This document shows, piece after piece, positions 12,473 through 63,053 of a stretch of DNA of 64,000 nt. Each line of letters begins with the position of its first letter. The stretch's first letter is position 1. Source of the stretch: Patescibacteria group bacterium (GTDB lineage: Bacteria; Patescibacteriota; Minisyncoccia; JAHISW01; Tagabacteraceae). Under the pieces are notes generated by a model, which did not search any database, was not told where the DNA came from, and was given only the letters and a program-made list of their open reading frames with translations. Location: NCBI GenBank assembly GCA_042577045.1, contig JBHPEK010000001.1:15173-79172 (forward strand). Direction: 5' to 3'. Made by a program: the position numbers and the translations under genes.

Positions 12473-12980
12473 TATTTTCCTCCCTTTCTTCAAGAAGTCT
12501 TGCCTCCTTGAGTTTAATTTCTTGTTTGTAAGTTTCAATTTCAGTAACTATTTTTTCTAAACTTGCCAGGTTGTATATCCTGTCTTTCCAACTAAGATAC
12601 TCCCCCAGCCATGTTTCTAGCTCAAAAGTATCTTTAGTTGTATTGGCCACTTTAATTAGGCCTCTTAGTTTTTTAGACATTGGAAAGTTTGGTGGAGTTA
12701 GTCTTTCAATTTCACGAAGCTTTTCAAAAGCATCTTTCATTATCCTCTCAAACTTTTGTTCAGGAAATTTTTCTTTCCACTGAATTGACTGGATAAGAGA
12801 CATGTAGCTAACAAACAAAATTACCGATATCAAAAAATTAGGCATAAACGACTTCACGGTGAGTAGAACAAAAATAACAAAAAAAAGAATGCTAACTAGA
12901 ATCAATGGCAACACTGCCCCCGGAAACTTACAGTAAAAACTTGCAAACAACGTTTTATGCCAGTTCAATTCTTTCTTCAT
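12462..12980 (-). CDS. membrane protein with C-terminal coiled coil
   Basis: Two TM helices; overlaps the downstream gene by 11 nt. Confidence 0.5.
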   Translation of the reverse strand: MKKELNWHKTLFASFYCKFPGAVLPLILVSILFFVIFVLLTVKSFMPNFLISVILFVSYMSLIQSIQWKEKFPEQKFERIMKDAFEKLREIERLTPPNFPMSKKLRGLIKVANTTKDTFELETWLGEYLSWKDRIYNLASLEKIVTEIETYKQEIKLKEARLLEEREENNEV

Positions 12981-13059: not shown

Positions 13060-13070
13060 CATATGTTTTT

Positions 13071-13095
13071 TCCATCGACATCCGATGTCGATGGA
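13071..13095. repeat. TCSGA-centred element, class A, perfect
   Basis: tccatcgacatc-c-gatgtcgatgga. Confidence 0.9.
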
Positions 13096-13135
13096 AATCT
13101 AAAAACTATCGGAAGAACAGTAAGCAATAAAAAAA

Positions 13136-13740: not shown

Positions 13741-13767
13741 ATCCATCGACATCCGATGTCGATGGAT
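13741..13767. repeat. TCSGA-centred element, class A, perfect 27 nt
   Basis: atccatcgacatc-c-gatgtcgatggat, 12 nt downstream of the RAYT-1 stop. Confidence 0.9.
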
Positions 13768-13779
13768 CGATAAAAGCTA

Positions 13780-14493
13780 CTAATCTAAAACGATATCTCT
13801 TATCTTTTCTAAATCAATTTCAGACCACTCTCTCAAAAACTTCTCGTAGTCTTTCTTTCCCCTAAACTGATCTGTGATTATTTCTGTTCCGGATAAAATT
13901 AAATCTTCAAAATCGTCTTGTAGATAACTTTTCAAACTAGACCATGGGTATTTAATAAGTTCTTTCTTTTTTAAATTCCAACTTTTTAAATTCCCCCCTC
14001 TCCAGTCTTTGCTGTCAATAAAATCTAATGGGTTAAGATGGATATACAAAGAAAGATGAAGAAGATAATTATTTGAATCAATATGTTTTGCTTTAAAATT
14101 ACTTTCAAAAAGAGAACCTTTCCGTTCTTGTTTGGTGTTTATATATTTTGCAATTGAAATATTACTCTTACGAAGAAAAGTACTTATTCCACCCTCCGTT
14201 AATTCTTTTACCAAAAGGTGATAGTGATTCGGCATAATTGAATAAGCAACGACATCAACAAGTTTATCACCTCTCCATGCTATATCTACTGCTTTTCTTA
14301 AGCTTACATTTTTGTAATTTCTTAAATAATCAAACGCCTTACTTGATTCTGTTGAATTTGCCAACAAAAAACATTGAGTAAGTTTATTTGCATTCTCATA
14401 GTTCTCAAATTCCGGAATATTTAATATTGTTCTGCTGTAAACGTGATAATATTCTCCTGAAACAAATTGGTCTTTTCTTATCATAATATTCAT
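13780..14493 (-). CDS. HUH/Y1 tyrosine transposase, IS200/REP-associated (RAYT-like), copy 1
   Basis: MPNHYHLLV (HUH) and LYIHLNP (catalytic Tyr) about 60 aa apart. The longer ORF to 14607 only translates the upstream hairpin. Confidence 0.8.
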   Translation of the reverse strand: MNIMIRKDQFVSGEYYHVYSRTILNIPEFENYENANKLTQCFLLANSTESSKAFDYLRNYKNVSLRKAVDIAWRGDKLVDVVAYSIMPNHYHLLVKELTEGGISTFLRKSNISIAKYINTKQERKGSLFESNFKAKHIDSNNYLLHLSLYIHLNPLDFIDSKDWRGGNLKSWNLKKKELIKYPWSSLKSYLQDDFEDLILSGTEIITDQFRGKKDYEKFLREWSEIDLEKIRDIVLD

Positions 14494-14503
14494 AAGTCTA
14501 TCA

Positions 14504-14526
14504 CCATCGACATCGGAAGTCGATGG
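14504..14526. repeat. TCSGA-centred element, class A with a hybrid inner arm
   Basis: ccatcgacaTCGGAagtcgatgg; exact reverse complement of 15046-15068. Confidence 0.9.
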
Positions 14527-14621: not shown

Positions 14622-15002
14622 ATGACAGAAATAAAGAAGATTTCCCGAGAAAATTGGGAAAGTTCTAGAGATAAGTGGGTTAAGATAGTTGAAAAAACAA
14701 AAAATCGTGAAAGATTTGTTCATCAACATGGTTTTCCCTATCTCCGAGCAAGTGGCAAATGCGGATATTGTTTTAATGTTTTTAGTTATTGCAAAAGTTG
14801 CCATCTTAACAAAACAAAAGTGGGAATAAGAAGTATTTGTGGTGATGTCTATTGGGGTGTTCCGAAGACTATTTTTTGGAAATACGTCAACGAAATGAGG
14901 AAATCGATCGAAGATCCCAATTCTGTTAATTGGGATACGGCAACGAAGTGGGCTCAGCAAATACTAGATGCGATTCTAGCAGACGAGCCCGAAAAAGAAT
15001 AA
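14622..15002 (+). CDS. Cys-rich small protein, paralog C
   Basis: GGAAAGGAGG RBS; MTEIKKISRENWES...; CGYC...CKSC...C; divergent from RAYT-1. Confidence 0.7.
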   Translation: MTEIKKISRENWESSRDKWVKIVEKTKNRERFVHQHGFPYLRASGKCGYCFNVFSYCKSCHLNKTKVGIRSICGDVYWGVPKTIFWKYVNEMRKSIEDPNSVNWDTATKWAQQILDAILADEPEKE

Positions 15003-15045: not shown

Positions 15046-15068
15046 CCATCGACTTCCGATGTCGATGG
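15046..15068. repeat. TCSGA-centred element, class A hybrid (inverted copy of 14504-14526)
   Basis: ccatcgactTCCGAtgtcgatgg. Confidence 0.9.
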
Positions 15069-15152: not shown

Positions 15153-16208
15153 ATGTCGAACGAACACATCTATGCCAATGCCTTAAATCAAAGTTTGCAT
15201 ATTGGCGCAGTGGGACTGGAAAAAATCAAAAAATATTTTGGTAGTTTTGAAAACGGATGGAAAGCATCTTTGAATGAACTTAAAAAAATTACTGGCGCGC
15301 ATAAATTAACTGAATTTAGAAATAATATTGACCCAAAAAAAGAATTTGAAACGTTAGAAAAAGAGGGTGTAAAAATTTTACTAAAAGAAGAATTCCCAGA
15401 AAAGCTAAGAGAAGTTTTTACTTCACCAGAAATTTTGTATATAAAAGGGAATTTACCAAAAGAATCCACCATTCATTTAACAATCGTTGGCCCTCGTAAA
15501 TTCTCAAACTATGGCAAAGAGGCATGTGAAAGAATAATCAGTGACTTGAAAGACCACAATATAGTAATAGTGAGTGGTTTAGCGCTTGGTATTGACGCCA
15601 TCGCCCACAGATCTGCCTTAGAAAACAAAATGCAAACTATTGCCGTCTTGGGAAACGGACTTAGTGACCAGGCGATGTATCCACAAGCAAACCTTAAACT
15701 ATCTAAAGAAATTGTTGCCCAGAACGGCTGTCTTGTTTCTGAATACGCCATGAACATGAAGGCTGCTCAATTTACATTTCCCCAAAGAAACAGAATTGCT
15801 GCCGGCTTGTCTCAAGGGACGTTGGTGATAGAGGCTGCCGAGAGAAGTGGCTCTCTGATCACGGCATTTTTGGCTTTAGAAAACAACCGAGAAGTATTTG
15901 CTATTCCCGGAGAGATTTTTGGAATAAACTCTAAGGGTACCAATAATTTATTAAAAATAGGCGCACTACCAGTTACCGAAGCTGGTGACATTCTTAAGGC
16001 CTTTGGAATAGATATTGATGAAGAAAAAGAAATAACAAACTTGACAATAGAAGAGAAAAGAATTATATCTGTACTTTACGAGCCATTAAACCGCGACGAA
16101 TTAATTAGAAAACTAAAAATGTCACCAGTGGAAATTAACCCTCAATTAATACAAATGGAAATAAAAGGTATTATAAAAGAAATCAATGGTAAAATATATA
16201 AGATTTAA
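15153..16208 (+). CDS. dprA: DNA processing protein DprA/Smf
   Basis: Rossmann-like core GLALGIDAIAHRSAL, PQRNRIAAGLS, plus a C-terminal winged helix. Confidence 0.9.
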   Translation: MSNEHIYANALNQSLHIGAVGLEKIKKYFGSFENGWKASLNELKKITGAHKLTEFRNNIDPKKEFETLEKEGVKILLKEEFPEKLREVFTSPEILYIKGNLPKESTIHLTIVGPRKFSNYGKEACERIISDLKDHNIVIVSGLALGIDAIAHRSALENKMQTIAVLGNGLSDQAMYPQANLKLSKEIVAQNGCLVSEYAMNMKAAQFTFPQRNRIAAGLSQGTLVIEAAERSGSLITAFLALENNREVFAIPGEIFGINSKGTNNLLKIGALPVTEAGDILKAFGIDIDEEKEITNLTIEEKRIISVLYEPLNRDELIRKLKMSPVEINPQLIQMEIKGIIKEINGKIYKI

Positions 16209-16213: not shown

Positions 16214-18325
16214 ATGAAGAGTTTAGTTATTGTAGAATCACCAACAAAAGCCAAAACTATTACCCGCTTCCTCGGGAAGGATTTCAAAGTGGAATCTAGT
16301 CTTGGGCACATGAGAGATTTACCGAAAGGTGAGCTTGGTGTGGATATAGAAAATAATTTTGAACCAAGATATGTTATTCCCAAAAAATCTCAAAAAAATG
16401 TAAACAAGCTAAAAAAGTTTGCCAAAGAATTTGACAAGATTATTTTAGCTACAGATGAAGACCGTGAAGGTGAAGCTATTGCTTGGCACCTACTAGAGGC
16501 ACTGGACCTCAAAAAACGAAAACCAGAAGAAATTGAAAGGATTGCATTTCATGAAATTACAAAAAGCGCTATTGAGAAAGCATTAGAAAACCCAAGGCCA
16601 ATGGATTTAAACCTTGTTGATGCTCAACAAGCCCGTAGAATTTTGGACAGATTAGTTGGCTACAAACTATCCCCTTTCTTATGGAAAAAATTAATGCGGG
16701 GATTGTCGGCTGGCCGAGTTCAATCGGTAGCCCTGCGTTTAATCATTGATAGAGAAAACGAAATAAGAAAATTTAAACCAGAGGATTATTGGTCTATTTC
16801 TGCCACTTTAATTTCTAAAAAACAAAAATTTCCTGCAGATTTAATTAAAATAGATGGTAAGCAAATTATCAAACCTGGAATTACTGATAAAAAAATAGCA
16901 GAAACAGCTTTGAAAGATTTAAAAGATGCTTCTTGGGCAATAGAATCTATAGAAAAGAAAAAACGAGAACAACAGCCCCGCCCACCATTTACCACCAGCA
17001 CCATCCAGCAAGCCGCACATAGCAACTTGTACTTCTCTGCCAAAAAGACAATGATGGTTGCCCAACAACTTTACGAAGGAATAAATCTAAAAAAAGAAGG
17101 AGGTGCATTGGGGCTAATTACCTACATGAGAACTGATTCATTTAGCGTTGCTCCATCGGCTGTTGAATCGGCAACAAAATACCTGAAAGACAACTTGGGC
17201 GAAAAATACACCCTAAGTAGTCCTCGTGTATTTAAAACAAAAAGTAAAGGCGCCCAAGAGGCACATGAAGCCATTAGGCCAACCCATCCAGAACTTAGTC
17301 CTGAATCTATTAAAGATGATTTGTCCGCCGATCAATTTAAACTGTATGATTTAATTTGGAGAAGGTTTATGGCAACTCAAATGCCAAATGCAATCTTCGA
17401 CAACACAACAATAAACACACTAGCTGGAAAATATTTATTTAGATCGCATGGATCAGTTTTAAAATTTGATGGTTTTCTGAAAATATATTTTACCCCGACC
17501 AAAGCGTCGGGGCCATCTAAAATGGAAGACAATATCTTGCCAGAGGTATCCAAGGAAGATGTTGTTTCTGCCAAAGAAGTAATATCTGAAGCGCATCAAA
17601 CTCAACCACCAGCAAGATACAACGATGCTTCTCTAGTTAAAATTCTTGAAAAACATGAAATTGGCCGACCTTCTACTTATGCTCAAATAATTTCCACTAT
17701 TCAAAGCAGAAATTATGTGGAAAAAGATGAAGCAAAAAGATTTATTCCTACCGAAATAGGCGAGAAAGTAAATAAAATAATGGTAGATCATTTCCCAGAT
17801 ATTGTGGATGTAGATTTTACAGCAGAACTGGAAGACAAACTAGATAAAGTTGCGGAAGGTAAAATTAAATACAAACCACTAATCAAAACATTCTATATTC
17901 CATTTGAGAAAAACCTAGAAGAAAAATACAAAACAGTAAAAGAAGAAGACCTAACAGAGGAAACTGATGAAGTTTGTGAAATATGTAGCAAGCCAATGAT
18001 AATTAAATACGGAAGATTTGGTAAATTTATGGCTTGCTCTGGTTTTCCAGATTGCAAAAACACTAAAAGTTTATCAGCAAAAGAGTTAAATATAAAATGT
18101 CCCCTTTGTAAAGAAAAAGGAGATGATGGCGATGTTATTTCTAGAAAAACAAAAAAGGGGAGGATATTTTTTGGATGTTCTGGCTGGCCAAAATGTAAAT
18201 TTGCCACTTGGAATAAACCAACTGGCGAACTGTGCCCAGAATGTAAAGAGCCAACCATGGAGATAAAGAATGAAATAAAATGCTCCAATAAAGAATGCAC
18301 CTACTCCATAGAAAAACCCCACTGA
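16214..18325 (+). CDS. topA: DNA topoisomerase I with C-terminal zinc ribbons
   Basis: TOPRIM (VIVESPTKAKTI, DEDREGE), active-site region ITYMRTDS, four Cys4 fingers. Confidence 0.95.
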   Translation: MKSLVIVESPTKAKTITRFLGKDFKVESSLGHMRDLPKGELGVDIENNFEPRYVIPKKSQKNVNKLKKFAKEFDKIILATDEDREGEAIAWHLLEALDLKKRKPEEIERIAFHEITKSAIEKALENPRPMDLNLVDAQQARRILDRLVGYKLSPFLWKKLMRGLSAGRVQSVALRLIIDRENEIRKFKPEDYWSISATLISKKQKFPADLIKIDGKQIIKPGITDKKIAETALKDLKDASWAIESIEKKKREQQPRPPFTTSTIQQAAHSNLYFSAKKTMMVAQQLYEGINLKKEGGALGLITYMRTDSFSVAPSAVESATKYLKDNLGEKYTLSSPRVFKTKSKGAQEAHEAIRPTHPELSPESIKDDLSADQFKLYDLIWRRFMATQMPNAIFDNTTINTLAGKYLFRSHGSVLKFDGFLKIYFTPTKASGPSKMEDNILPEVSKEDVVSAKEVISEAHQTQPPARYNDASLVKILEKHEIGRPSTYAQIISTIQSRNYVEKDEAKRFIPTEIGEKVNKIMVDHFPDIVDVDFTAELEDKLDKVAEGKIKYKPLIKTFYIPFEKNLEEKYKTVKEEDLTEETDEVCEICSKPMIIKYGRFGKFMACSGFPDCKNTKSLSAKELNIKCPLCKEKGDDGDVISRKTKKGRIFFGCSGWPKCKFATWNKPTGELCPECKEPTMEIKNEIKCSNKECTYSIEKPH

Positions 18326-18344: not shown

Positions 18345-18380
18345 TTTAGCATTTACTTACGATCGTAAGTAAATGCTAAA
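18345..18380. repeat. perfect 36-nt palindrome centred on ACGATCGT (family P)
   Basis: tttagcatttacttacga|tcgtaagtaaatgctaaa. Confidence 0.9.
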
Positions 18381-18438: not shown

Positions 18439-18472
18439 TATACACTTACCAACGATCGTAGATAAGTGTATA
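18439..18472. repeat. family P palindrome (centre AACGATCGTA)
   Basis: tatacactta...taagtgtata arms. Confidence 0.75.
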
Positions 18473-25650: not shown

Positions 25651-25697
25651 CCACCCTGGGCACAAAATAAAAATCAAATTAAAATTAAACAAAATAC

Positions 25698-25727
25698 ACC
25701 ACTTATCCACGATCGTAAGTAAGTGGT
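25698..25727. repeat. family P palindrome (centre ACGATCGT), imperfect
   Basis: accactta-tcc-acgatcgt-aag-taagtggt. Confidence 0.7.
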
Positions 25728-25871
25728 ATTATGTATTGTGTTTTTATTTCTAACATTGCTAGTTTGGAAAAACACCGAACTGAAAACTAAACCACTTATC
25801 CCGTGTTATGTGATGTAACCAGAAATTTCTTTTCCTTATTATTCTTTTTTCGATAATTTATTTTAGGGCTT

Positions 25872-26276: not shown

Positions 26277-26461
26277 ATGTATTTAGATTAAATTATTTCC
26301 TTACCAAGATAATATCACAAACCATAGTCGACCTTAAACAAATTGCCAAAAAAATCTTAAAAAAATAATAAAGAAATTTCTGGCTATTTCATATAGTTCG
26401 TTATTATACATACTATTACTTATACTGTATCACTTTGTAATTGGTGATACAATGTAATACA

Positions 26462-28498
26462 ATGTCAACCATGAAATATCACATCATCACATACGGCTGT
26501 GGAGCCAATCATGCCGATTCAGAAAGGATCGAAGCGAAGCTTCACGCACTTGGACACACAAAAGCCGCCAACAAGAAGGTGGCTAATTTGATAGTGATTA
26601 ATTCTTGCTCGGTGCGCAAGTCAGCTATGGATCGTCTTTATGCACAAATAAACAAACTAAAAACCAAGAAAAAGAAAGTAATTTTGGCAGGATGCATCTT
26701 AGAAAAAGACCTAAAAAATTTGAAAGACAAGGTAAGTGAAGTTTGGCACCCAGATGAGTACTTCGACTTAATGCCAATTTATGCAGATGAAGTTGGTGTG
26801 TCTGTCCCCATTATGACGGGGTGCAACAACTTTTGCACATATTGTGCTGTTCCTTACACCCGTGGACGAGAAAAATCTCGCCCAGCAAAAGATATTGTCG
26901 ATGAAATAAAGAAACTTGTGGCAAGCCCCGCCGGGCGGGATAAAAAAGAAATTTGGCTATTGGGTCAAAACGTAAACAGTTACCGATCTGGTAAAACAAA
27001 CTTTCCAAAACTTTTACAGAAAATAGATAAAATACCCGGCAAGTTTTGGGTTCGTTTTATTTCCCCACACCCAAAAGACTTCTCGATTGAATTAATAAAA
27101 ACAATTAAAAAATGTGAAAAAATTACTGAATACATAAACGTGCCTGTTCAGTCTGGAGACAATGAAATACTAAAAAGAATGAATAGAAACTACACGCGCG
27201 AACACTATATAAAACTTGTAAACAGAATTAGAAAAGAAATACCAGACGCATCTATATCCACAGATACCATTGTTGGCTTCCCTGGGGAAACAAAAAAACA
27301 ATTCTTGAATACTAAAGATTTATACAAAAAATTAAAATTTGATATGGCATTTCTAGCTGAATACTCTCCTCGTCCGGGGACTTTTTCAGCAATGATGATG
27401 AAAGACAACGTAAGCCATACCGAAAAAGAAAAACGAAAAAAAGAACTAAATGACATTTTAACCAAAACTGCACTAGAGAATAATAAAAAATATATTGGAA
27501 AAACAGTAGAAGTTTTAAATGGACGAACTCGCACCAATAAGCTGGTTACCCTACACGATACCGAGTATCGTGTAGGGCCAAGTGAATTCTTGAATGTAAA
27601 AATTACAGGAGCTGAATCTTGGAGACTAAAAGGGGAAATTGTTAAAAAAATAGTAGTTGTGCTTGGGCCTACTGCTTCTGGAAAAAGTGGTTTAGCTGTT
27701 GAGATAGCTCAAAAATTCCCTTCTGAGATTATCTCTGCAGATTCTAGACAAATTTACAAAGGAATGAATATCGGTAGTGGAAAAATAACAAAAAAGGAAA
27801 TGAAAGGAATAAAACATCATCTTCTTAACATAGTTAGCCCAAGAAAAATATATTCGGCAGGAGAATTCAAAAAAGAAGCTCAAAAATGTATCGAAGGAAT
27901 ATTGAAACAAGACAAAACGCCTATCATTTGTGGTGGAACAGGTTTTTATATCAACTCGCTTTTGGGTGGAAACATTGCCGAAGTAGAACCAGATTGGAAC
28001 TTGAGAAAAAAACTTGAGGAAAAAACTACAAAACAACTTTTTGGCCAACTGAAAAAACTAAAACCCCAAAGAGCAAAAAATATTGATTCCCAAAACAAAC
28101 GCCGACTAATACGGGCTATTGAAATAGCCAAATCTGCATCGAAGTCGGACTTCGACGCAATATCGAAGTCCGACTTCGATGTGTTGTATTTAGGAATTAA
28201 AAAAGACGGAGAAAAGCTAAAAAAAATAATTGATAAGAGGGTGGACGAAATGATTGAAGAAGGATTAGAAAAGGAAGTAAAAAAACTTGTTAAAAAATAT
28301 GGGTGGACGAAGACTTTAAAAAATACAATTGGATACCAAGAATGGAAAGAAGACAATTCAGAAGAAAAGATAAAGGCCCATTCACACCAATACGCAAAAA
28401 GACAAATAACTTGGTTTAAGAAATATGCACCGAAAACACACTGGCTTGGCAACAAAAAAGAAGCATTAAAATTAGTAAGAAACTTTTTAAAGAATTAA
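26462..28498 (+). CDS. miaB-miaA: fused MiaB (radical SAM methylthiotransferase) - MiaA (tRNA dimethylallyltransferase)
   Basis: UPF0004 N-domain, CNNFCTYC radical SAM cluster and TRAM domain, followed by a P-loop GPTASGKS and ADSRQIYKGMNIGS. Start is at 26462 or 26471. Confidence 0.85.
   Translation: MSTMKYHIITYGCGANHADSERIEAKLHALGHTKAANKKVANLIVINSCSVRKSAMDRLYAQINKLKTKKKKVILAGCILEKDLKNLKDKVSEVWHPDEYFDLMPIYADEVGVSVPIMTGCNNFCTYCAVPYTRGREKSRPAKDIVDEIKKLVASPAGRDKKEIWLLGQNVNSYRSGKTNFPKLLQKIDKIPGKFWVRFISPHPKDFSIELIKTIKKCEKITEYINVPVQSGDNEILKRMNRNYTREHYIKLVNRIRKEIPDASISTDTIVGFPGETKKQFLNTKDLYKKLKFDMAFLAEYSPRPGTFSAMMMKDNVSHTEKEKRKKELNDILTKTALENNKKYIGKTVEVLNGRTRTNKLVTLHDTEYRVGPSEFLNVKITGAESWRLKGEIVKKIVVVLGPTASGKSGLAVEIAQKFPSEIISADSRQIYKGMNIGSGKITKKEMKGIKHHLLNIVSPRKIYSAGEFKKEAQKCIEGILKQDKTPIICGGTGFYINSLLGGNIAEVEPDWNLRKKLEEKTTKQLFGQLKKLKPQRAKNIDSQNKRRLIRAIEIAKSASKSDFDAISKSDFDVLYLGIKKDGEKLKKIIDKRVDEMIEEGLEKEVKKLVKKYGWTKTLKNTIGYQEWKEDNSEEKIKAHSHQYAKRQITWFKKYAPKTHWLGNKKEALKLVRNFLKN
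28136..28158. repeat. TCSGA-centred element, class D, inside the miaA part (in frame)
   Basis: gcatcgaagtc-g-gacttcgacgc. Confidence 0.8.
28160..28182. repeat. TCSGA-centred element, class D, inverted partner, in frame
   Basis: atatcgaagtc-c-gacttcgatgt; with 28136-28158 it encodes SKSDFDAISKSDFD. Confidence 0.8.
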
Positions 28499-30734: not shown

Positions 30735-33401
30735 TTATTTAGCTATTGTTTTAGCAGGTTTTTTGGCTGGTGCTCTCTTCTTTTTGGGTATTCCGTCAAT
30801 AATTAATTCTCCCTTCTGTACCTTTACGGTAACTGCATCACCACTAGAGATTTTACCAGAAATAATAAGTTCGGCAACAACATTAAGAATTTTATTTTGA
30901 ATAAGACGTTTTAATGGTCTTGCCCCATATTGAATACTAAAACCTTTCTGTGCTAGATAGGTCAATGCCTCAGCAGAAACCTTTAGCTTTACCCCCCTAT
31001 CGTGCATTCTTTCTTCAATTTCTTTAATTTGAATTTTAACAATATCTTTCAAGTTATCTTCAGTTAACCGATTGAAAACAATTACCTCGTCTAATCTGTT
31101 CAAAAACTCGGGTCTAAACTTGGCCTCTAGGGATTTATAAATTTTTTCCTTCAAGTTTTGTTCTTTATTTGTTTGCTCTGGTCCTGTTGAAAAACCAATT
31201 TTAGAAATTTTCTTGGCAAATTCTGAACCAACATTTGAAGTCATAATAAGAATTGTGTTCTTGAAATTCACATGCCTACCTTTTGAATCCGTTAAACGTC
31301 CGTTGTCTAACACTTGAAGCATAATGTTGAAAACTTCTGGATGTGCTTTCTCTATCTCGTCAAAAAGAACAACGGAATAAGGTCTGTGCCTAATAATCTC
31401 CGTCAACTGCCCTCCTTCATCGTGGCCAACATATCCGGGAGGAGAACCAATAAGTTTAGAAATAGCGTGTTTCTCCATATATTCAGACATATCTACTCGA
31501 ACAAGCGATTTTTCATCATTAAACATTAAATTGGCCAGAACACGCGCCAATTCTGTTTTCCCAACACCGGTTGGACCCAAAAACATAAATGAACCAATTG
31601 GACGTTCCATATCAGAAATACCAGCGCGAGAACGCCTAATGGCCTGAGCTATCTTTGTAATCGCCACATCTTGACCAACAATATGTTTTTTTAGCGATGT
31701 TTCTACCTGAAGGAGTTTTTGAGCTTCTGTTTCCAACATCTTGCTAACCGGAACCCCTGTCCAACGGGAAACAACATCGGCAATTTCTTCTTCGGTAATT
31801 TCTTCTTTCAGAACTCTTCTTAAAATTTGTAACTTTTTAAGACGATTTTCTTTTTTACGTAATTCACCTTCAGTCTGAGGAATGTTTGCATAACGAATTT
31901 CGGCAACCCTGGTAAGATTACCCCTTCTTTCTTCATTGTCGGCCTCGAGACGCATCACTTCTAAATTACTCTTCAATTGTCTAATGTCTGTGATGGTTTC
32001 TTTTTCGTTTTTCCATTTCAATTCTAGGGCCGAAATTTGTTCTTTTAAGTCGTCAATTTGCTTGTCTATCTTTTTTATTTTTGTTTTAGATTTTATGTCA
32101 GATTTTAGCGACTCTTTTTCAATTTCAAGATTCCTAATCTCTTTATGCACTTTTTCTAACTCCTTGGGCATGCTGTCGAGATCAAGTCTAAGAGCTGAAG
32201 CAGATTCGTCGATAAGATCAATCGCTTTGTCTGGCAAAAATCTATCCGTGATATATCTACTTGAAAGATGTACCGCCGATTTAATTGCAGTATCTGTAAT
32301 CCGCACTCCGTGGTGCAATTCATATTTTTCTTTAATTCCTCTTAAGATGGCGATTGTATCATCTTGAGACGGCTCCTCAACAAATATTGGCTGAAAACGC
32401 CTAGTAAGCGCTCCGTCTTTTTCGATATGTTTTTGATATTCCTTAAGAGTGGTAGCACCCACCGCACGAAGCTCTCCTCTGGCTAATGCTGGTTTTAAAA
32501 GATTGGAGGCGTCAATAGCTCCTTCAGCACCACCGGCGCCAACTAACGTATGAAGCTCATCGATAAAAAGAACCACCCTTCCTTTGGCCCGCTCTATCTC
32601 CCGCATAACAGTTTTCAATCTTTCTTCAAACTCTCCACGATATTTAGTACCAGCAACCAAGGAGCCAATATCAAGCGCAATAACCTCTTTTTCTTTTAGA
32701 GACTCTGGCACATTGCCTTGAGCAATTCTTTGACTCAAGCCTTCAACAACAGCTGTTTTTCCAACACCTGCTTCGCCAATTAAAACCGGATTGTTTTTGG
32801 TGCGCCTAGATAAAATCTGCATAATACGCCTGATCTCGTCATCTCGCCCAATAATTGGATCTAATTTATCTTCGCGCGCCATTTTAGTAAGGTTTCTAGA
32901 ATATTTTTCCAAAACCTTCAATCCACTTTTTTCAGTAACATCGTGAACTTGTTCACTACCGCCCAGATTCTTTAAAATATCTAAAACTTTTTCTTTGTCA
33001 ACTCTGAGCTTGTTTAAAACTTCTTTTGCTCGAGAAGAAACTTCGCAAAGACCAAGCAAAAGGTGTTCGGTGGAAATATAGTTGTTTCCAATTGACTTGG
33101 AAGCGTTAAACGATGCCTCTACAACGCGACCCAGGTCTGGAGTTAAGTAAACTTGTTGAGTCGACATAACGACGTTTGGATTGCCAATATCTTCAAGTTC
33201 TTCCAAAACCGAATCGGTTAAAAAATTTATATCAACTTCTAATTTATCAAAAATAGACAAAACGACGCCATCGTCCTGCAAAATAAGCGCAGCTAAAAGA
33301 TGGAGTGTGTCTATTTGGCTTTGCCCTCGTTCCATGGCTAGCTCATGTGCTTTGCGAATGGCTTCTTGAGCCTTTTGTGTAAAATTTGAAAATGGTAACA
33401 T
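30735..33401 (-). CDS. clpB: ClpB disaggregase
   Basis: Clp N-domain, two AAA+ modules ([16 protein letters not shown]), long middle coiled coil. Confidence 0.95.
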
Positions 33402-33410
33402 AGATATATT

Positions 33411-34697
33411 TTACAAGTTTTCTGGCTTTTCGTCAAGGGAAGTAATTATTGTCTGCTCTTGTCTATCCCTCAAGAATTTAATAGAAATTTCACGCCCCAC
33501 ACGTACGTTGGCAATAATCTCTGCTAAGATGTTACTTTTATCTACTCTTTGACCATTAAATTCTAAAATAATATCTCCTTCTTGAAAACCCGCTTTATCT
33601 GCTGGGCTGTCTTTTATTACTGCTGGTTCGCCATTAGGGCCTTTGATTAGAACTACGCCATAGTTTATGTCAGCTTCTATACCTAATTCTTTCTTTACGC
33701 TATCTGTGATTAGGGTGTAACGAACACCAAAATAAGCCTCTCTAATTTCTCCAAATTCTTTTAGGTCACTAATATTTTTCTTAGCGATATTTATAGGTAA
33801 AGCAAATCCCACATTTTCAGCTCCTTGGGCAACTGCCGTATTTATGCCAATCACCTTACCTTCCAAATCTAAAAGTGGCCCGCCAGAATTTCCTGGATTT
33901 ACAGCAGCATCAGTTTGAATAATTCTTTGTAGTTTTTCTGAACCAAAAGACCCAGTGGCCACAACTGTTCTGTCTATCCCCGAAACAATGCCAATAGAAA
34001 CTGTGTTTTGGAATTCTCCCAAAGTGTTGCCAATAGCAATTACCGTCTGCCCTACTTTAATTTTATCTGAATTGGCAAAAGGAATATGGTTAAACTTCTC
34101 ACCTTCCTCGGGCTTAATTTTTAAAACAGCCAGATCTTGAAATGGATCTAGGGCCATTACTATGGCTGGTAAACTTCTACCGTCGTTCATAACAATGGTG
34201 TATTCCGCCTTTTGATCTGCAACAACATGTTTATTTGTTAGAAGGTATCCGTCTTCAGAAACAAAGAAACCAGTACCGCTAGAAATTTCTACTCTTTCGG
34301 TTCCTTTTTGGCGGTATTGAGGCACCTGCATTTCAGGCAAGAAACCTGGTGGAAATATGTTATTAAAGAATTCATCTTCTTGAAACGGGTTTATGAAATA
34401 TTGTTCAATTACTGGAATATCTTTTGATGCCACCACACTAACTACTGCCGAAGTATAATTTTCTACAATATTAACTATCAAATCTTCTTGGGTAACGATA
34501 ACCACGTCCGCAGTTGTTTTTCCAGAGTCCAAAGAAACCGTTTCAATCGTTTTTTCAATAACTCGGCTAACTGTTTGCGTAATAGGAGCAGGCGCTTGGG
34601 TAACCAAAGTAGCCGTAACAATACCCGTAAAAACAGATGTTACAAAACTGACCAAAAGAACCAGAAGAATAAATTGTGAGCGCGTTAACTGTTCCAC
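33411..34697 (-). CDS. htrA: HtrA/DegP-family serine protease with PDZ domain
   Basis: TNKHV, DLAVLK, GNSGGPL triad context; C-terminal PDZ; GTG start. Confidence 0.9.
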   Translation of the reverse strand: MEQLTRSQFILLVLLVSFVTSVFTGIVTATLVTQAPAPITQTVSRVIEKTIETVSLDSGKTTADVVIVTQEDLIVNIVENYTSAVVSVVASKDIPVIEQYFINPFQEDEFFNNIFPPGFLPEMQVPQYRQKGTERVEISSGTGFFVSEDGYLLTNKHVVADQKAEYTIVMNDGRSLPAIVMALDPFQDLAVLKIKPEEGEKFNHIPFANSDKIKVGQTVIAIGNTLGEFQNTVSIGIVSGIDRTVVATGSFGSEKLQRIIQTDAAVNPGNSGGPLLDLEGKVIGINTAVAQGAENVGFALPINIAKKNISDLKEFGEIREAYFGVRYTLITDSVKKELGIEADINYGVVLIKGPNGEPAVIKDSPADKAGFQEGDIILEFNGQRVDKSNILAEIIANVRVGREISIKFLRDRQEQTIITSLDEKPENL

Positions 34698-34786
34698 TTG
34701 ACTTTTTATATAATTATGTTAGTATAAACATAGACTATCATTCTCTTTTACAAAATTATATCACAAAAAAAGTTGGAGGTGAAGAA

Positions 34787-35305
34787 ATGAAAACAGGAAA
34801 CGGAATGGTAAGTGGGGTTTGCATTGGGTTTGAGGACAAGAATAATCCAACGATTATTCTTGTCAAAAATGCTGATGGCAAAAAACCGGAAAAATATGGT
34901 TTACCAGGCGGTATAATTGAAAATAACGATAGAAGTGTAACAAGAGCCCTCTATCGCGAATGGGAAGAAGAAGTTGAAAAACCAGATCCAATCTTCGGAT
35001 TAATCTTTCTTACAGAATGTGGATGCGAAATAATTCGGAACGAAGGAACAGAAAGAGAGCATGAGTGGTATTTATTTGCAATTGAAGATCAATTGCAAAC
35101 CTTGCGAAACCACGGAATGCCCGGAGAAACTGAGGCGCCAGAAAGAATTTTTCTTCACAATGTCATCTACCTAGAAGATTTTCCAATCTTCTATTCACAC
35201 CTTAAAGGCATACTTGCTGTTCTAGAAAAAATGGCAGCATGTGCGCCACACGTGCCTGAGTTATCTTTCCTCGCAAGAGACTTGCGAGGAAAGATTGAAA
35301 GATGA
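34787..35305 (+). CDS. NUDIX hydrolase
   Basis: Nudix box GLPGGIIENNDRSVTRALYREWEEEV; GGAGGT RBS. Confidence 0.7.
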   Translation: MKTGNGMVSGVCIGFEDKNNPTIILVKNADGKKPEKYGLPGGIIENNDRSVTRALYREWEEEVEKPDPIFGLIFLTECGCEIIRNEGTEREHEWYLFAIEDQLQTLRNHGMPGETEAPERIFLHNVIYLEDFPIFYSHLKGILAVLEKMAACAPHVPELSFLARDLRGKIER

Positions 35306-35320
35306 AAAAGCAAAATCAAA

Positions 35321-35348
35321 AGGACCGGAGTTTATCCCGGTCTTTTTT
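35321..35348 (+). terminator. terminator of the NUDIX gene
   Basis: aggaccgg...ccggtct plus TTTTTT. Confidence 0.7.
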
Positions 35349-35372
35349 GTTTGTTTTATTGGCCAATTCTTC

Positions 35373-35421
35373 ATCTGTGTACTGAGAGAGATGTTGTCTC
35401 TCTCAGGAGCTTCCAACAGAT
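35373..35421. repeat. composite palindrome: class B outer arms with nested CTGAGAGAGA inner arms
   Basis: atctgtgtactgagagagatgttgtctctctcaggagcttccaacagat; 6 nt downstream of the RAYT-2 stop. Confidence 0.8.
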
Positions 35422-35427
35422 ACCAAA

Positions 35428-36081
35428 TTATTCTATTATGAACTCTTTTATGTCTTCGAACCTGCTCTTACTTTTGGTTTTGCAGCTTTTTAGAAATTCT
35501 TCATATTCGTCGTAATTTTTTAAAGGAGTCCATTTGTATTCTTCAAGAAATTTTTTTGCCTTACGCCAATCTTTTAAGCCCTCCTCTTTCCACCTAGGCT
35601 CAAAAAGATCTAGCGGGTTTAGATAAATATATTGTTTTAAATAATTTAAATATTCATCTTTATCTATTAGAACTGCCTTGAACTTTCCCTGAAACAAAAC
35701 TCCACTTCTCTCATATTTTTGATTAAAATAATTAGTGTAGCCAGTTCCCAGTTTTTGCATAAAACTGGAAATTCCGCCATCTTCCAATTGTTCAAGAATT
35801 AAATGAAAATGATTAGGCATTAAACAAGAGCCATAAAATTTAACTACGGACTCTCTGTCCTCTTTTTTTACTATGTGGGAAGTCGGACTTCCCACAGATA
35901 CCGCTCCTTCGCTAACACTTATACGACGAAACAGATTAATAGAAGAGTTCTTATCATTAAAATCTCTTAAGCTAAAAAGGAAGCGATGGTAGTCTTTGTC
36001 GTCCATAAAAACCTTACGTTTGTCTGTCCCACGGTTAAAAACGTGATAAAAATGGTTATTTGCAAATTGAGGTTTTTTCAT
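35428..36081 (-). CDS. HUH/Y1 tyrosine transposase, IS200/RAYT-like, copy 2
   Basis: MPNHFHLIL (HUH), QYIYLNP (Tyr). Start is at 36081 (MKKPQF...) or 36108. Confidence 0.8.
   Translation of the reverse strand: MKKPQFANNHFYHVFNRGTDKRKVFMDDKDYHRFLFSLRDFNDKNSSINLFRRISVSEGAVSVGSPTSHIVKKEDRESVVKFYGSCLMPNHFHLILEQLEDGGISSFMQKLGTGYTNYFNQKYERSGVLFQGKFKAVLIDKDEYLNYLKQYIYLNPLDLFEPRWKEEGLKDWRKAKKFLEEYKWTPLKNYDEYEEFLKSCKTKSKSRFEDIKEFIIE
35874..35896. repeat. class B element inside the RAYT-2 CDS (in frame, encodes VGSPTSH)
   Basis: tgtgggaagtc-g-gacttcccaca followed by gatacc. Confidence 0.85.
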
Positions 36082-36107
36082 TACTTTTATTATATATACA
36101 TATTTCA

Positions 36108-36134
36108 TCTGTGGGAAGTCCGACTTCCCACAGA
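36108..36134. repeat. TCSGA-centred element, class B, perfect 27 nt
   Basis: tctgtgggaagtc-c-gacttcccacaga. Confidence 0.9.
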
Positions 36135-36156
36135 AAAGGTTAGTTTTTTAGTGGAA

Positions 36157-36579
36157 TTATTTTTGGGTGTTTTTGTTGTGTGATTTCTTTTGATAGTTTT
36201 TGATAGTTTCTTTGAATGCTTGATCGGCTAAGACAGAGCAGTGGATTTTAATTTCCGGCAGACCACCAAGTTCATTCATAATGTCTTTTGGTGTAATTTT
36301 TAAAGCTTCGTCTATACTTTTTCCAATCACCATTTCTGAAAAAACAGACGTAGAAGCAATAGCCGAAGCGCACCCAAATGTACGCCACTTGAAATCTTTG
36401 ATTTTGTCTCCCTCAAACTTAATCCACATCTTCATCACATCACCACACGCTGGCGAACCCACCTCACCTTCTGCATCAAATTCTCCCGATTTGGGGTCCA
36501 CCAAAAGAACATTTTGTGGATTAAAAAAATGTTTTTTTACTGTTTCGCTATATTGCCAATCTAGGCCATCCTTTATCAT
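36157..36579 (-). CDS. nifU: NifU/IscU-type Fe-S cluster scaffold
   Basis: GSPACGDVM, FGCASAIASTS, HCSVLA motifs. Confidence 0.85.
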   Translation of the reverse strand: MIKDGLDWQYSETVKKHFFNPQNVLLVDPKSGEFDAEGEVGSPACGDVMKMWIKFEGDKIKDFKWRTFGCASAIASTSVFSEMVIGKSIDEALKITPKDIMNELGGLPEIKIHCSVLADQAFKETIKNYQKKSHNKNTQK

Positions 36580-36580
36580 A

Positions 36581-37801
36581 TTATTTTATGGAAGAAATAT
36601 TTTTTAATTTGTTAATAATATCTGGAAGAACTTTCAAAACATAATCTATGTCTTCTTTTGTGTTTTCCTTTCCCAAGCTGAACCGAACCGAACCATGCAC
36701 GTGCTCATGGCATCGGCCAATCGCTTTTATAACGTGTGAGGGTTCTAAACTATCCGAACTACACGCCGAACCGGTTGAGGAGGCTATTCCTTTGGCATCA
36801 AGGTATAAAATAATAGATTCGCCCTCTACTCCATGAAAAGAAATATTTATATTATTTGGAAGTCGGGCGTCTAAAGATCCGTTAATTTTGGAGTCGGGAA
36901 AAGTTTTTGAAAGATTTTCTATAAAATAATTACGCAATTCAATAAGACGAGCAGATTCTTTTTCTCTTTCCTTTTGGGCAACCTCTAGCGCCTCAGCAAA
37001 GCCAACAATGGCAGGAATATTTTCTGTTCCTGGACGAAGACCAGATTCTTGCCCACCACCGTAAAGTATTGGCTCAATTTTTAATCCTCTCTTTTTGTAA
37101 AGGCACCCAACTCCTTTGGGCCCATAAATTTTAGAACCGTTTAAAGACATTAGATCTATTCCCAACTTGGCAACATTTAAATCTAGAAAGGACGGGGTTT
37201 GAATAGCGTCGGTATGAAAATATGGTGTTTCAACTCCGTGTTCTTTTCGATGAGCACGAATTATTTTAGCAATCCTAGAGATTGGTTGAATGGTTCCTAT
37301 TTCATTATTGGCATACATAATAGAAACCAAGATCGTCTCTTTTCGAAGTTCTTTTTTTAATTCTTCTAAATCCACCAGTCCATCTTTATCTACATCTAAA
37401 TAACTAACTTCGAATCCCTCTTTCTCAAGTTTCTCGCAAGCATGAAGGACCGCGTGATGTTCTATACTGGAAGTAATGATATGTGGGAAGTTGGACTTCG
37501 CACGCTTGTTGTGGGAAGTCCTGAGAGAGATCTGATCTCTCTCAGTGCCCACAGAACCAAAAATGGCCAGATTGTCACTCTCAGTACCACTAGAAGTAAA
37601 AATAATTTCGTCTGGACGTGCACTCAAAATTTCGGACACTTTATGTCGAGCGTCAGAGATGGCTTTTTTGGCAACTCGACCCTCCTCATAAATTGAAGAG
37701 GCATTTCCAAAATCCACAGACCAAAAAGGCTCCATTGCCTTTTTAACAGCTGGATCTAGTTGGGTAGTTGCTGCATGATCTAAATATATTCTTTTCATCA
37801 T
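36581..37801 (-). CDS. nifS: cysteine desulfurase (NifS/IscS) carrying an in-frame repeat insertion
   Basis: GTESDN, PLP Lys region SLNGSKIYGPKG, catalytic SSTGSACSS. Confidence 0.9.
   Translation of the reverse strand: MMKRIYLDHAATTQLDPAVKKAMEPFWSVDFGNASSIYEEGRVAKKAISDARHKVSEILSARPDEIIFTSSGTESDNLAIFGSVGTERDQISLRTSHNKRAKSNFPHIITSSIEHHAVLHACEKLEKEGFEVSYLDVDKDGLVDLEELKKELRKETILVSIMYANNEIGTIQPISRIAKIIRAHRKEHGVETPYFHTDAIQTPSFLDLNVAKLGIDLMSLNGSKIYGPKGVGCLYKKRGLKIEPILYGGGQESGLRPGTENIPAIVGFAEALEVAQKEREKESARLIELRNYFIENLSKTFPDSKINGSLDARLPNNINISFHGVEGESIILYLDAKGIASSTGSACSSDSLEPSHVIKAIGRCHEHVHGSVRFSLGKENTKEDIDYVLKVLPDIINKLKNISSIK
37482..37504. repeat. degenerate class B element inside nifS
   Basis: tgtgggaagtTggacttcGcacG. 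Confidence 0.7.
37510..37553. repeat. composite class B/inner-arm element inside nifS
   Basis: tgtgggaagtcctgagagagatctgatctctctcagtgcccaca. Confidence 0.85.
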
Positions 37802-38877
37802 AAATTTCTATAAAGTTTAAGCCACTTAATAGTTTTTTTCAAGCCCAAAACATTTCTAAAATATCGAAAAAATATAAGATGGCGTAAAAATTTTGCAAAC
37901 AATCCCTTTAACTTTAAAAAACCAAAATCAATAAAAATATCATTTCCGCCAAAATCAACTATATAAAAACTTTTATTTTCTTTATAGTTTGAAATTTTTT
38001 GATTGTTAATCTTCTTTTTTAGTGCTCTGGCAATATATTTTCCTTGGTGAATTGCCGATTGCGCCGTTGGCGCTTTTATAAGAAAAACGTTTTTGTATTT
38101 TTTAAGACGAAGGGTGCTGCTTGTTTCTTTAAACTCCTCAATTAGGTGGTTCTGTTTCTTTCCAGTTGCCCAAACTAAAACATCCTCAAGGTCTTCTTTT
38201 TCAATCTGGCTTTTTGTAAAAATTTCAACATTCATTTTTTCAAAAATATTTAATGCAGTTTCGCGAATCCAAGACGAAGAAGATGGCAAAATTTTGCTAC
38301 CAATTTCAAAAAGTTTAAAATGTATTAAATCACGCGGGTGTGAATGCGCAACAGAAAGATTGCGTACATAATGATGCAAGCTAGCTATTAACTCACACCC
38401 AACCAAACCAGCTCCAGCTACCACAATGTCTATCTTTTCCTTCTTAGCTTTTTGTTTCAAAATCTCTTCAATTTTTGTCTTAATCCTCAAAACATCTTCC
38501 AAAGATGAAAATGATGAGTTTGGAAATTGTGGCTCGGCGCCAGTCGCCAAAACAAGATAATCGTAGTCTACAACTTTTTTGTTCTTCAAATTAATTTTAT
38601 TTTGATTGGGTAAAAATTTAACAACTTTGTTTTTTAGAAAAGTTATTTTTTTATTTCCAAATATGTCTTCGAATTTTATGGCAACTACTTGGAAAACTTT
38701 AGAAACATCCAAAATAGAAGACGTGGCCCTAAAAAATGCAGGCGTAAAAAGATGATAGTTGTTTTTATCAACCAAAACTACTTCAAATTCTTTGGGGGCG
38801 ATTTTTAAAATGTGTTTGGCAACTGCCAGACCAGCAAAACCACCACCCACTATAACAAGTTTCTTTTTTTTCTTCAT
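37798..38877 (-). CDS. FAD/NAD(P)-dependent oxidoreductase (NDH-2 / pyridine nucleotide-disulfide type)
   Basis: Two dinucleotide folds: VIVGGGFAGLA and VVAGAGLVGCE. Confidence 0.6.
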   Translation of the reverse strand: MKKKKKLVIVGGGFAGLAVAKHILKIAPKEFEVVLVDKNNYHLFTPAFFRATSSILDVSKVFQVVAIKFEDIFGNKKITFLKNKVVKFLPNQNKINLKNKKVVDYDYLVLATGAEPQFPNSSFSSLEDVLRIKTKIEEILKQKAKKEKIDIVVAGAGLVGCELIASLHHYVRNLSVAHSHPRDLIHFKLFEIGSKILPSSSSWIRETALNIFEKMNVEIFTKSQIEKEDLEDVLVWATGKKQNHLIEEFKETSSTLRLKKYKNVFLIKAPTAQSAIHQGKYIARALKKKINNQKISNYKENKSFYIVDFGGNDIFIDFGFLKLKGLFAKFLRHLIFFRYFRNVLGLKKTIKWLKLYRNL

Positions 38878-40672: not shown

Positions 40673-40697
40673 CCCCAGAATGCAATACATTCTGGGG
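40673..40697 (-). terminator. terminator of the PEP-CTERM gene; near-identical copy at 41553-41577
   Basis: ccccagaatg...attctgggg. Confidence 0.65.
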
Positions 40698-41512: not shown

Positions 41513-41539
41513 TCTGTGGGAAGTCCGACTTCCCACAGA
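41513..41539. repeat. TCSGA-centred element, class B, perfect
   Basis: tctgtgggaagtc-c-gacttcccacaga followed by tacaaaaaa. Confidence 0.9.
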
Positions 41540-41552
41540 TACAAAAAACTAT

Positions 41553-41577
41553 CCCCAGAATGCAGAACATTCTGGGG
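41553..41577 (-). terminator. terminator of 41645-42007
   Basis: ccccagaatg...attctgggg. Confidence 0.65.
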
Positions 41578-46883: not shown

Positions 46884-46931
46884 ATCTGTGGGAAGTCCTG
46901 AGAGAGATAGTATCTCTCTCAGGACACAGAT
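46884..46931. repeat. composite class B/inner-arm palindrome
   Basis: atctgtgggaagtcctgagagagatagtatctctctcaggacacagat followed by accaaaaaa. Confidence 0.85.
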
Positions 46932-46944
46932 ACCAAAAAACACC

Positions 46945-60377: not shown

Positions 60378-60488
60378 ATGTATTTATCTAAACGTGGCAA
60401 AAAATTAAACAGGGCTGTTTGGATTTTCATCAGTATTTTGGCAATCATCGGAATGGTGGGTTACCTCATTGTACCACTTTTCTACTAA
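60378..60488 (+). CDS. possible 36-aa membrane peptide
   Basis: TATAAT at 60363-60368; MYLSKRGKKLNRAVWIFISILAIIGMVGYLIVPLFY. Confidence 0.35.
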   Translation: MYLSKRGKKLNRAVWIFISILAIIGMVGYLIVPLFY

Positions 60489-63044: not shown

Positions 63045-63053
63045 TACTGGACA

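Follow-up and report, generated by a model that had tools for sequence, protein, structure and literature searches.

A RAYT-like gene of Patescibacteria with cognate hairpins on both flanks and a recurrent copy inside its own coding sequence

In Proteobacteria it is established that the genes of repetitive extragenic palindromic (REP)-associated tyrosine transposases (RAYTs) have cognate REPs at their flanks, that several RAYT/REP pairs share a genome, and that repeat and protein co-evolve (PMC2817692, PMC3116915, PMC5581495). In-frame intragenic REPs, and the Rickettsia palindromic elements (RPEs), are known as well (PMC3733652). We describe a related system in a 64,000-nucleotide stretch (the window; 37% GC) of contig JBHPEK010000001.1 from a Patescibacteria group bacterium. 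Its subject is a gene at positions 35,428 to 36,081, here called copy 2, which is predicted to encode a RAYT-like Y1 HUH enzyme, is flanked by a class B hairpin on one side and a class B-derived composite hairpin on the other, and holds a further class B hairpin in frame within its own coding sequence. The core of the system is of the known REP-RAYT kind. What appears to be new is a Patescibacteria-wide family and the recurrence of a cognate hairpin inside the enzyme's own coding sequence. We found no literature linking RAYTs or REPs with Patescibacteria or the Candidate Phyla Radiation, and the RAYT papers searched contain no mention of a cognate hairpin inside a RAYT gene's own coding sequence.

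The closest described relatives are the REP/REPIN-RAYT systems, including E. coli YafM (TnpA_REP, structure 4ER8) and those of Pseudomonas and Stenotrophomonas (PMC2817692, PMC3116915, PMC3479197, PMC5581495). As in those systems, a Y1 HUH enzyme is encoded between copies of one short palindromic repeat that also occurs dispersed within the 64 kb, several paralogs occur per genome, each with its own repeat class, and repeat and protein co-evolve. Within the window and the loci compared, the genes are essentially single copy and inherited in synteny, inverted doublets of repeat units occur (at 28137-28181 here), and a short conserved head stands beside the stem (GTATC here). The differences lie in the host, which is a member of the Patescibacteria, and in the protein, which scores below the NCBIfam RAYT cut-off and lacks two RAYT motifs, NP(L/V)(R/K)xG and an N-terminal Thr. 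The repeats also differ, being near-perfect palindromes with a 1- to 3-nt tip that often lie within coding sequences, and about a third of the genes hold a cognate hairpin within their own coding sequence.

Three further kinds of system invite comparison. The IS200/IS605 insertion sequences, represented by IS608 and ISDra2 TnpA, share the Y1 HUH fold and Pfam family, the subterminal hairpins and a compact cassette with its own promoter; however, in the family described here the same palindrome class stands at both ends (50 of 91 genes) in place of distinct left and right ends, there is no tnpB gene and, within the window and the loci compared, no sign of multiple identical copies, and both the fold and the NCBIfam results favor the RAYT branch. 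Intragenic repeats such as the RPEs and the GTAG and CGTC REPs (PMC3733652) likewise place a dispersed palindrome in frame in a variable or surface segment and keep the reading frame open, a likeness that extends to the NifS gene and the MiaB-MiaA fusion gene of the window. Those known cases decorate unrelated genes and are regarded as neutral, whereas the host gene here is that of the repeat's own presumed enzyme, and the site recurs across a large family in step with the flank copies. Finally, the TIRYT or subclass 2.1 TnpA_REP-like proteins (PMC3733652, PMC6006769) are also long Y1 proteins of the RAYT branch with a C-terminal extension. They carry a helix-turn-helix domain and are associated with long terminal inverted repeats without REP-like hairpins, in contrast to the short palindromic flank hairpins found here. 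The YHVxNRG...LMPNHxHL-type motifs of copy 2 presumably resemble those of the TIRYT or subclass 2.1 group.

The enzyme and its three hairpins

The features of the copy 2 cassette are as follows; hairpins are given without strand.
35373-35421: 3' flank composite hairpin with class B outer arms and a GTATC head, 6 nt past the TAA stop (-11.6 kcal/mol, z = -3.3)
35428-36081, minus strand: coding sequence of the RAYT-like Y1 HUH enzyme, copy 2, an open reading frame of 217 amino acids starting MKKPQF
35629-35631, minus strand: codon of the presumed catalytic Tyr151 (QYIYLNP); Y151, N155 and P156 are invariant in the homolog alignment A1
35803-35811, minus strand: HUH motif codons H91-F92-H93; H91 and H93 are invariant in A1
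35874-35896: internal class B hairpin TGTGGGAAGTCGGACTTCCCACA, an exact palindrome in frame, encoding VGSPTSH, residues 63-69 (DNA fold -9.9 kcal/mol, z = -5.1)
36089-36117, minus strand: promoter-like site from a consensus scan, 10 of 12 positions, with TTCCCA (36117-36112), a 17-nt spacer and TATAAT (36094-36089)
36108-36134: 5' flank class B hairpin TCTGTGGGAAGTCCGACTTCCCACAGA, a 27-nt perfect palindrome 26 nt upstream of the ATG (DNA fold -12.6 kcal/mol, z = -6.3)

A first-pass annotation of the stretch had proposed the coding sequence with its MPNHFHLIL and QYIYLNP motifs, class B-derived elements on both of its flanks and an in-frame class B copy encoding VGSPTSH, and all of its coordinates hold. 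The internal site is the 23-nt core of the 5' palindrome, reading GTG GGA AGT CCG ACT TCC CAC on the gene strand, and is identical to the cores of the class B copies at 36111, 41516 and 63021. The open reading frame passes through it unbroken and aligns end to end with homologs. The 3' element has outer arms ATCTGTtGGAAG...CACAGAT around an inner hairpin CTGAGAGAGAC..ATCTCTCTCAG (also written CTGAGAGAGA..TCTCTCTCAG); because the same composite is found again at 46884-46931 and 37512-37556, it is correctly described as class B derived.

These hairpins all fold far better as DNA than shuffled sequence does (z = -3.3 to -6.3), and the 21-nt class B core, allowing up to 3 mismatches, has 5 matches against 0.00 expected from 100 shuffles. 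In all, 8 class B or B-derived copies lie in the 64 kb. In five of these eight, an additional GATAC is found on the plus strand, which reads as a GTATC head on the minus strand, and the orientation is the same throughout (35897-35901, 35417-35421, 41540-41544, 46932-46936 and 63045-63049). This head might correspond to the GTAG head that E. coli REPs have, or a strand bias might account for it. Judged by the head, the internal and 3' copies share one orientation and the 5' copy has the opposite one; the internal copy is 211 nt away from the 5' copy, and the two do not constitute a REPIN doublet.

The putative -35 hexamer, TTCCCA, sits in the right arm of the 5' hairpin, and this hairpin would occupy the place of a -35 element or an operator. 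The TATAAT box ends 7 nt ahead of the ATG and a Shine-Dalgarno sequence cannot be seen, which makes a leaderless mRNA probable; relatives are alike in this respect, and the promoter-like spacing recurs in them. An Rfam scan of positions 33000-38500 gave nothing relevant. A public entry, P0001, annotated "transposase [Patescibacteria group bacterium]" with 226 amino acids, is 100% identical to the copy 2 protein, and its annotated start (36108) falls within the 5' hairpin, upstream of the -10 box. The homologs in alignment A1 all begin at MK(R/K)PxF, matching the ATG at 36081, and the 226-residue annotation is therefore probably too long by 9 codons. For annotation, this means that the start of the window gene seems to have been miscalled in a family that now carries only the label "transposase."

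Sequence and model comparisons support a Y1 HUH enzyme of RAYT-like identity, as had been proposed. The protein matches Pfam Y1_Tnp with 36.1 bits, over a cut-off of 23, and Pfam did not detect a helix-turn-helix domain in it. REP_Tyr_transpos is the sole NCBIfam match in 25 of 25 aligned members, with a best E-value of 2.7e-13. An AlphaFold2 model of copy 2 was built from alignment A1, with a predicted local distance difference test (pLDDT) score of 81, and its top Foldseek match in the PDB is 4ER8, the E. coli TnpA_REP bound to a REP hairpin (E = 1.4e-5; TM-score of 0.62, normalized to the target); the IS608 and ISDra2 TnpA structures rank lower. With phmmer, copy 2 had nothing but chance matches among PDB sequences. 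Two observations count against a RAYT assignment. The score against NF047646, the REP_Tyr_transpos equivalog, is 36 bits, below the curated cut-off of 80, and the RAYT-specific motifs of PMC2817692 are absent: the Tyr-motif region reads YIYLNPLDLFEP, in which NPL is present and (R/K)xG is not, and the N-terminal strand reads FYHVFNRG, without the Thr. As the protein falls short of these curated sequence criteria, we file it as a variant of the REP/RAYT kind and not as a canonical RAYT.

In the model, strand 1 comprises residues 11-15, helix A residues 28-40 and the HUH-motif strands residues 80-87 and 92-98, and Tyr151 lies in a helix of residues 142-154. Segment 41-79 is of low confidence, with mean pLDDT values of 51-54 and values below 50 at 67-69. 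The first-pass annotation had suggested mapping the hairpin-encoded insertion onto such a model; residues 63-69 fall in this low-confidence loop, between helix A and the pre-HUH strand, and the modeled HUH and Tyr sites are intact. We take this loop to be roughly 20 to 30 residues longer than its counterpart in E. coli YafM.

Recurrence of the hairpins across the family

A homolog search with copy 2 returned 2,881 proteins at E <= 1e-5, and nearly all named matches were from Patescibacteria. From 80 species-representative loci and 11 closer relatives, 91 family genes were placed by tblastn and surveyed for flank hairpins, defined as GC-rich palindromes within 200 nt of the start or near the stop. 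A 5' hairpin was found in 71 genes, a 3' hairpin in 73 and both in 63, and the hairpin class that the two flanks share in 50 of the 91 varies between genomes. The spacing is tight: the median distance from the end of the 5' hairpin to the start codon is 24 nt (interquartile range, 17.5-30), and from the stop to the 3' hairpin it is 2 nt. Among the 71 genes with a 5' hairpin, 25 have a TAnAAT-like -10 box ending 6-9 nt before the start, and 32 have one anywhere in the spacer.

The shared TCSGA center noted at first in the window proved to be a wider property, a T-C-S-G-A type center being common to many hairpin classes across the family. Flank-hairpin similarity follows protein similarity (Mantel r=0.41, p=0.001), rising from 7.2 of 17 matching core positions at 35-45% protein identity to 14.2 of 17 above 70%. 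These comparisons support the proposal that hairpin and protein co-diversify, and they extend it well beyond the window.

The internal copy also recurs. It was scored as a copy of the gene's own flank hairpin, with no more than 2 mismatches in the 17-nt core, lying 8-35 codons before the NHxH motif, and was present in 31 of the 81 genes with a flank hairpin. Cognate copies in this loop reach 4.7 per kb, against 0.052 in the rest of the coding sequence and 0.035 elsewhere. By distance from the gene, their density is 0.15 per kb at 200-1000 nt, 0.030 at 1-2 kb and 0.011-0.017 at 2-10 kb. No two of the 31 internal copies have the same arm sequence. Stem positions 2-9 are paired in 90-100% and position 10 in 77%, compared with 41-44% in shifted registers; because the copies were picked by their similarity to a palindrome, these values show diversity and are not an independent test of pairing. 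The encoded peptides in A1 are loosely conserved, with the codon symmetry of a reverse complement (VGSPTSH, VGDPISH, VGNRISH and EGHPMSL). In 22 genes the hairpin is centered on codon position 2, in 8 on position 1 and in 1 on position 3; this center lies 12-31 codons ahead of the HUH motif, with a frame that is uniform within clades. On a neighbor-joining tree, presence of the copy is clade enriched, with 20 state changes needed where permutations give 28.1 (p about 0.001). The internal copy is thus a genuine, recurrent and lineage-persistent third site of the cassette, presumably for docking, and not a random match. The first-pass annotation was right about the copy itself and had missed its recurrence, which makes it a feature of the family in place of a single insertion. 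Its function may be that of a self-regulatory site, or the copy may be a by-product of local copying.

Relatives that are 53-76% identical to copy 2 keep the internal position and frame constant while the arms follow the flank copies of their own genome. At locus L081, the internal copy equals the 5' copy, both being GGGAAGTTSAACTTCCC. At L105, it agrees with the 3' copy throughout 30 nt, the GTAT head and an imperfect stem being common to both. At L106, it matches the reverse-complemented 5' copy at 24 of 25 positions, and the agreement extends to an asymmetric mismatch. Identity with the 3' copy extends over 22 nt in L082 and 20 nt in L086, and L083, L084 and L104 have hybrid hairpins in which the two arms match different neighboring copies. 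Selection for pairing cannot explain imperfect stems that are shared exactly; they require that sequence was physically transferred between the sites.

The genomic setting was compared among relatives as well. The window and L085 share the gene order nifS-nifU-Y1-htrA, with identities of 60% for the Y1 protein and 64%, 78% and 62% for NifS, NifU and HtrA. The other relatives occupy three further sites: rpsF...ychF (L081, L083, L104, L105 and L106), glmS-secD (L082 and L084) and a site on the side of folD (L086 and L107). Each of the four sites is common to 2-5 genomes. The alternative sites (glmS-secD, rpsF-ychF and folD-greA) were looked for in the 64-kb window as possible empty sites, and none of them lies there. 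Each cluster of proteins at 90% identity is found on very few contigs (no more than 6 among those listed), and neither the 64-kb window nor the 20-kb loci showed near-identical copies of the complete element. Judged by synteny and copy number in this material, the copy 2 family follows the RAYT pattern of a single copy with mostly vertical inheritance and rare relocation, and not the pattern of a proliferating insertion sequence. At L082, positions 3641-5504 hold two LAGLIDADG open reading frames and no other called genes; the two probably belong to homing-endonuclease introns of an rRNA operon.

Paralog, hairpin classes and other repeats of the window

The remaining features of the window that bear on the hairpins are listed here; only the gene has a strand.
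13069-13097: class A copy, 0.7 kb from copy 1
13741-13767: class A hairpin, just past the copy 1 stop
13780-14493, minus strand: paralog copy 1 (Y1_Tnp), which lacks an internal hairpin and shares 32% identity with copy 2
14504-14526: imperfect class A hairpin, 10 nt upstream of the copy 1 ATG
15046-15068: class A copy, 0.55 kb from copy 1
35318-35347: bidirectional terminator-like hairpin between the converging NUDIX gene and RAYT-like gene
37479-37557: degenerate class B copy and B/D composite in tandem, in frame in the NifS gene, 1.4 kb from copy 2
41513-41539: dispersed class B copy, intergenic, core match
46884-46931: dispersed B/D composite, intergenic, class B outer arms
63018-63044: dispersed class B copy, intergenic, core match

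Each paralog has its own arm class, as had been proposed, copy 1 being associated with class A (CCATCGACATCSGATGTCGATGG) and copy 2 with class B. Preferential adjacency of the two classes to their own genes, which the first-pass annotation had named, at the scale of the genome, as the observation on which its proposal would stand or fall, holds inside the 64-kb window: of the 6 class A copies, 4 are no farther than 1 kb from copy 1 (P = 4.5e-5), and of the 8 class B copies, 3 are inside copy 2 or within 100 nt of it (P = 1.3e-4). The accompanying statement that the hairpin region is absent from copy 1 needs correction. In the protein alignment, at 32% identity, copy 1 has a loop of similar length at that place, without the palindrome.

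Class C (GCGTCGACGTCSGACGTCGACGC) occurs at 1497, 47009, 56173 and 57381 and differs from class A mainly by two compensatory pairs. It was said to have no gene of its own in the window, and tblastn indeed found no third Y1 gene there, giving only two. Scanning metagenome contigs with the class C core yielded 17 matches, of which 14 were on unrelated contigs of 48-69% GC and were set aside as most likely due to chance; the relevant contigs are only L089, L093 and L098, all from one sample, with 35-40% GC. The Y1 gene of contig L098 (35% GC) shares 58% identity with copy 1. Its stop is directly followed by a perfect class C hairpin, and a hybrid hairpin with a class C left arm and a class A right arm precedes its ATG by 13 nt. 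As this gene is flanked by class C, class C is the cognate class of copy-1-type genes in a relative. The hairpins of L098 are at 813-835 and 1567-1591, and that of L089 is at 35-59. Contig L098 ends and L089 begins at the same hairpin, and assemblies seem to break at such repeats.

Hairpins also lie within other coding sequences of the window. In the NifS coding sequence (36581-37801, minus strand), the hairpin segment reads ...GTERDQISLRTSHNKRAKSNFPH... and exceeds by 7 residues its counterpart in the NifS of L085, a protein of 64% identity. The coding sequence of the MiaB-MiaA fusion (26441-28498, plus strand) holds, in frame, a 29-nt hairpin at 27549-27577 and a REPIN-like inverted doublet of CATCGAAGTCSGACTTCGATG units at 28137-28181 (peptide SKSDFDAISKSDFD). 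A 50-nt perfect palindrome at 61716-61765, with 24-bp arms (CCACACGACACCGAGTTTCGTGTA), lies within an open reading frame of 608 amino acids (60485-62311, minus strand) and is related to the hairpin at 27549-27577. Another hairpin class, CCCCAGAATGCA..CATTCTGGGG, is represented at 40673-40697 and 41553-41577. A gap of 13 nt separates the second of these copies from the class B copy at 41513-41539, an arrangement suggestive of mosaic clusters resembling the bacterial interspersed mosaic elements (BIMEs). A separate repeat family consists of AT-rich long palindromes with a TACGA|TCGTA or CGATCG center (8277-8320, 18345-18380, 18439-18472 and 25676-25749). At locus L036, compound perfect palindromes of 60-92 nt, made from hairpin units, form a REPIN-like population far more elaborate than that of the window (4159-4222, 12544-12606, 14888-14979, 16074-16133 and 16464-16529).

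Explanations for the three-site cassette and their significance

The reading that we think probable is that of a three-site cassette, in which the cognate hairpin has been copied repeatedly among a promoter-proximal site, the internal loop and the post-stop site, the loop being the only tolerant place in the gene. The system would be a REP/RAYT-type system of a Patescibacteria lineage, and the gene product a Y1 HUH single-strand DNA endonuclease and strand-transferase. Its cognate substrate would most likely be the 27- to 31-nt class B palindrome, folded as a hairpin in single-stranded DNA, which the enzyme is presumed to bind and cleave. The cassette would have a tight order: a hairpin whose right arm serves as the -35 element, a -10 box, a leaderless ATG with the coding sequence, the stop and a second hairpin. 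The third cognate copy would lie in an expanded, probably disordered loop between helix A and the pre-HUH strand, the one place in the enzyme expected to tolerate 7-10 encoded residues. Repeated copying, either by RAYT-catalyzed strand transfer or by short-tract gene conversion over 200-450 nt, would then keep the three sites alike.

Several observations weigh against this reading. The three reading frames and the 12- to 31-codon distances to the HUH motif argue for several independent origins, and the neighbor-joining tree demands at least 20 gains or losses of the internal copy. About 60% of the family have no internal copy, including copy 1 and the syntenic L085, and the internal site is consequently dispensable; L085 has matching 5' and 3' hairpins with a loop about 11 codons shorter. 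Homogenization is also not continuous, since L082 and L084 share an imperfect internal copy by descent. The median loop is 71 residues with a copy and 67 without, a difference of only about 4, and we rejected on these medians a general rule that insertion into the loop adds about 9 codons. Residual palindromy in the loops of genes without an internal copy is not significant (p=0.20), and the idea of a universally ancestral hairpin decaying everywhere was dropped.

A bolder form of the three-site reading, which we put forward tentatively, is a self-referential cassette in which the internal hairpin would be maintained as a third site. The Y1 enzyme would recognize the promoter, gene and post-stop hairpins and exchange DNA among them, thereby throttling its own expression and keeping the specificities of enzyme and hairpin matched while both diversify. 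If this were true, the identical imperfect copies, direct in L105 and inverted in L106, would be footprints of the REP copying reaction, of which we know no direct observation in vivo.

Among the alternatives, the first is that the internal hairpin has been selected as a self-regulatory element which, together with the -35 hairpin, throttles the gene's own expression and limits the spread of hairpins. Such regulation could come from binding or cutting of DNA that is single-stranded while being transcribed or replicated, or from a stable hairpin formed by the leaderless mRNA, although HUH enzymes acting on RNA are not known. This is a serious rival because the loop is occupied as densely as the canonical flanks and far above nearby non-coding DNA: at 4.7 copies per kb, it exceeds the less constrained DNA 200-1000 nt away about 30-fold, an excess that diffuse local insertion by itself would not predict. 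It would also account for a position and frame that persist in clades while the arms change in step with the flanks, and for a 5' hairpin held at a conserved distance and overlapping the -35 position, and down-regulation is a known theme in the family, the E. coli RAYT being strongly self-inhibited (PMC3479197). We nevertheless regard selection for self-regulation as a possibility to be held with reserve, as about 60% of the members, the syntenic ortholog L085 among them, do without the internal copy, and several imperfect internal copies are identical to an imperfect flank copy, which points to copying and not to selection for pairing.

A second alternative dispenses with both inter-site copying and function and supposes repeated independent insertion near the gene, with purifying selection sparing one permissive loop. 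In-frame hairpins in NifS, the MiaB-MiaA fusion and the coding sequence at 60485-62311, the drop in cognate-copy density with distance from the gene, and the three frames, variable HUH distance and 20 state changes on the tree are all in keeping with it, as is L085, which is short of about 11 codons at the site, or about one element length. Independent insertion is nonetheless unlikely: it does not explain a density in the loop 30 times that of nearby non-coding DNA, a loop only about 4 residues longer with a copy than without, or a position and frame kept within clades while the arms are replaced, and the identical imperfections shared by internal and flank copies require transfer between those specific sites.

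A third alternative, which we consider improbable, is an active insertion sequence of the IS200/IS605 type, whose ends would be the flank hairpins, with the solitary hairpins as nonautonomous derivatives and the internal copy incidental. The hairpins do bracket the gene tightly, at medians of 24 and 2 nt, the protein belongs to Pfam Y1_Tnp, and the four genomic contexts of close relatives imply that the cassette has moved at least a few times. However, the 64 kb hold one gene copy per hairpin class, the paralogs are just 32% identical, and protein clusters are found on at most 6 contigs among those listed. The sites are conserved across genomes with divergence like that of neighboring housekeeping genes, the same palindrome stands at both ends, and the protein matches the NCBIfam RAYT model and no other transposase model, with a fold nearest to the RAYT structure 4ER8. 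That the palindromes in and near the gene are chance or compositional matches can be dismissed, given 5 observed against 0.00 expected in shuffles, window adjacency P values between 1e-4 and 4e-5, and recurrence of the pattern in independent genomes.

To our knowledge, how tyrosine transposases copy REPs, and what benefit the cell may draw from them, is still unresolved decades after REPs were first described. The family of about 2,900 database proteins is a compact natural experiment on this question, with three cognate sites within 700 nt, and sequence comparison alone is enough to reveal copy events (from hybrid arms and from imperfect copies that are identical in direct or inverted orientation), the co-diversification of hairpin and protein, and relocation among four sites. 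It extends REP/RAYT-like systems to ultra-small, reduced genomes, in which selfish or domesticated repeats are not expected to be common, and in which hairpins are routinely tolerated inside essential genes such as those of NifS and MiaB-MiaA. The family thus offers a natural record of how such hairpins get copied.

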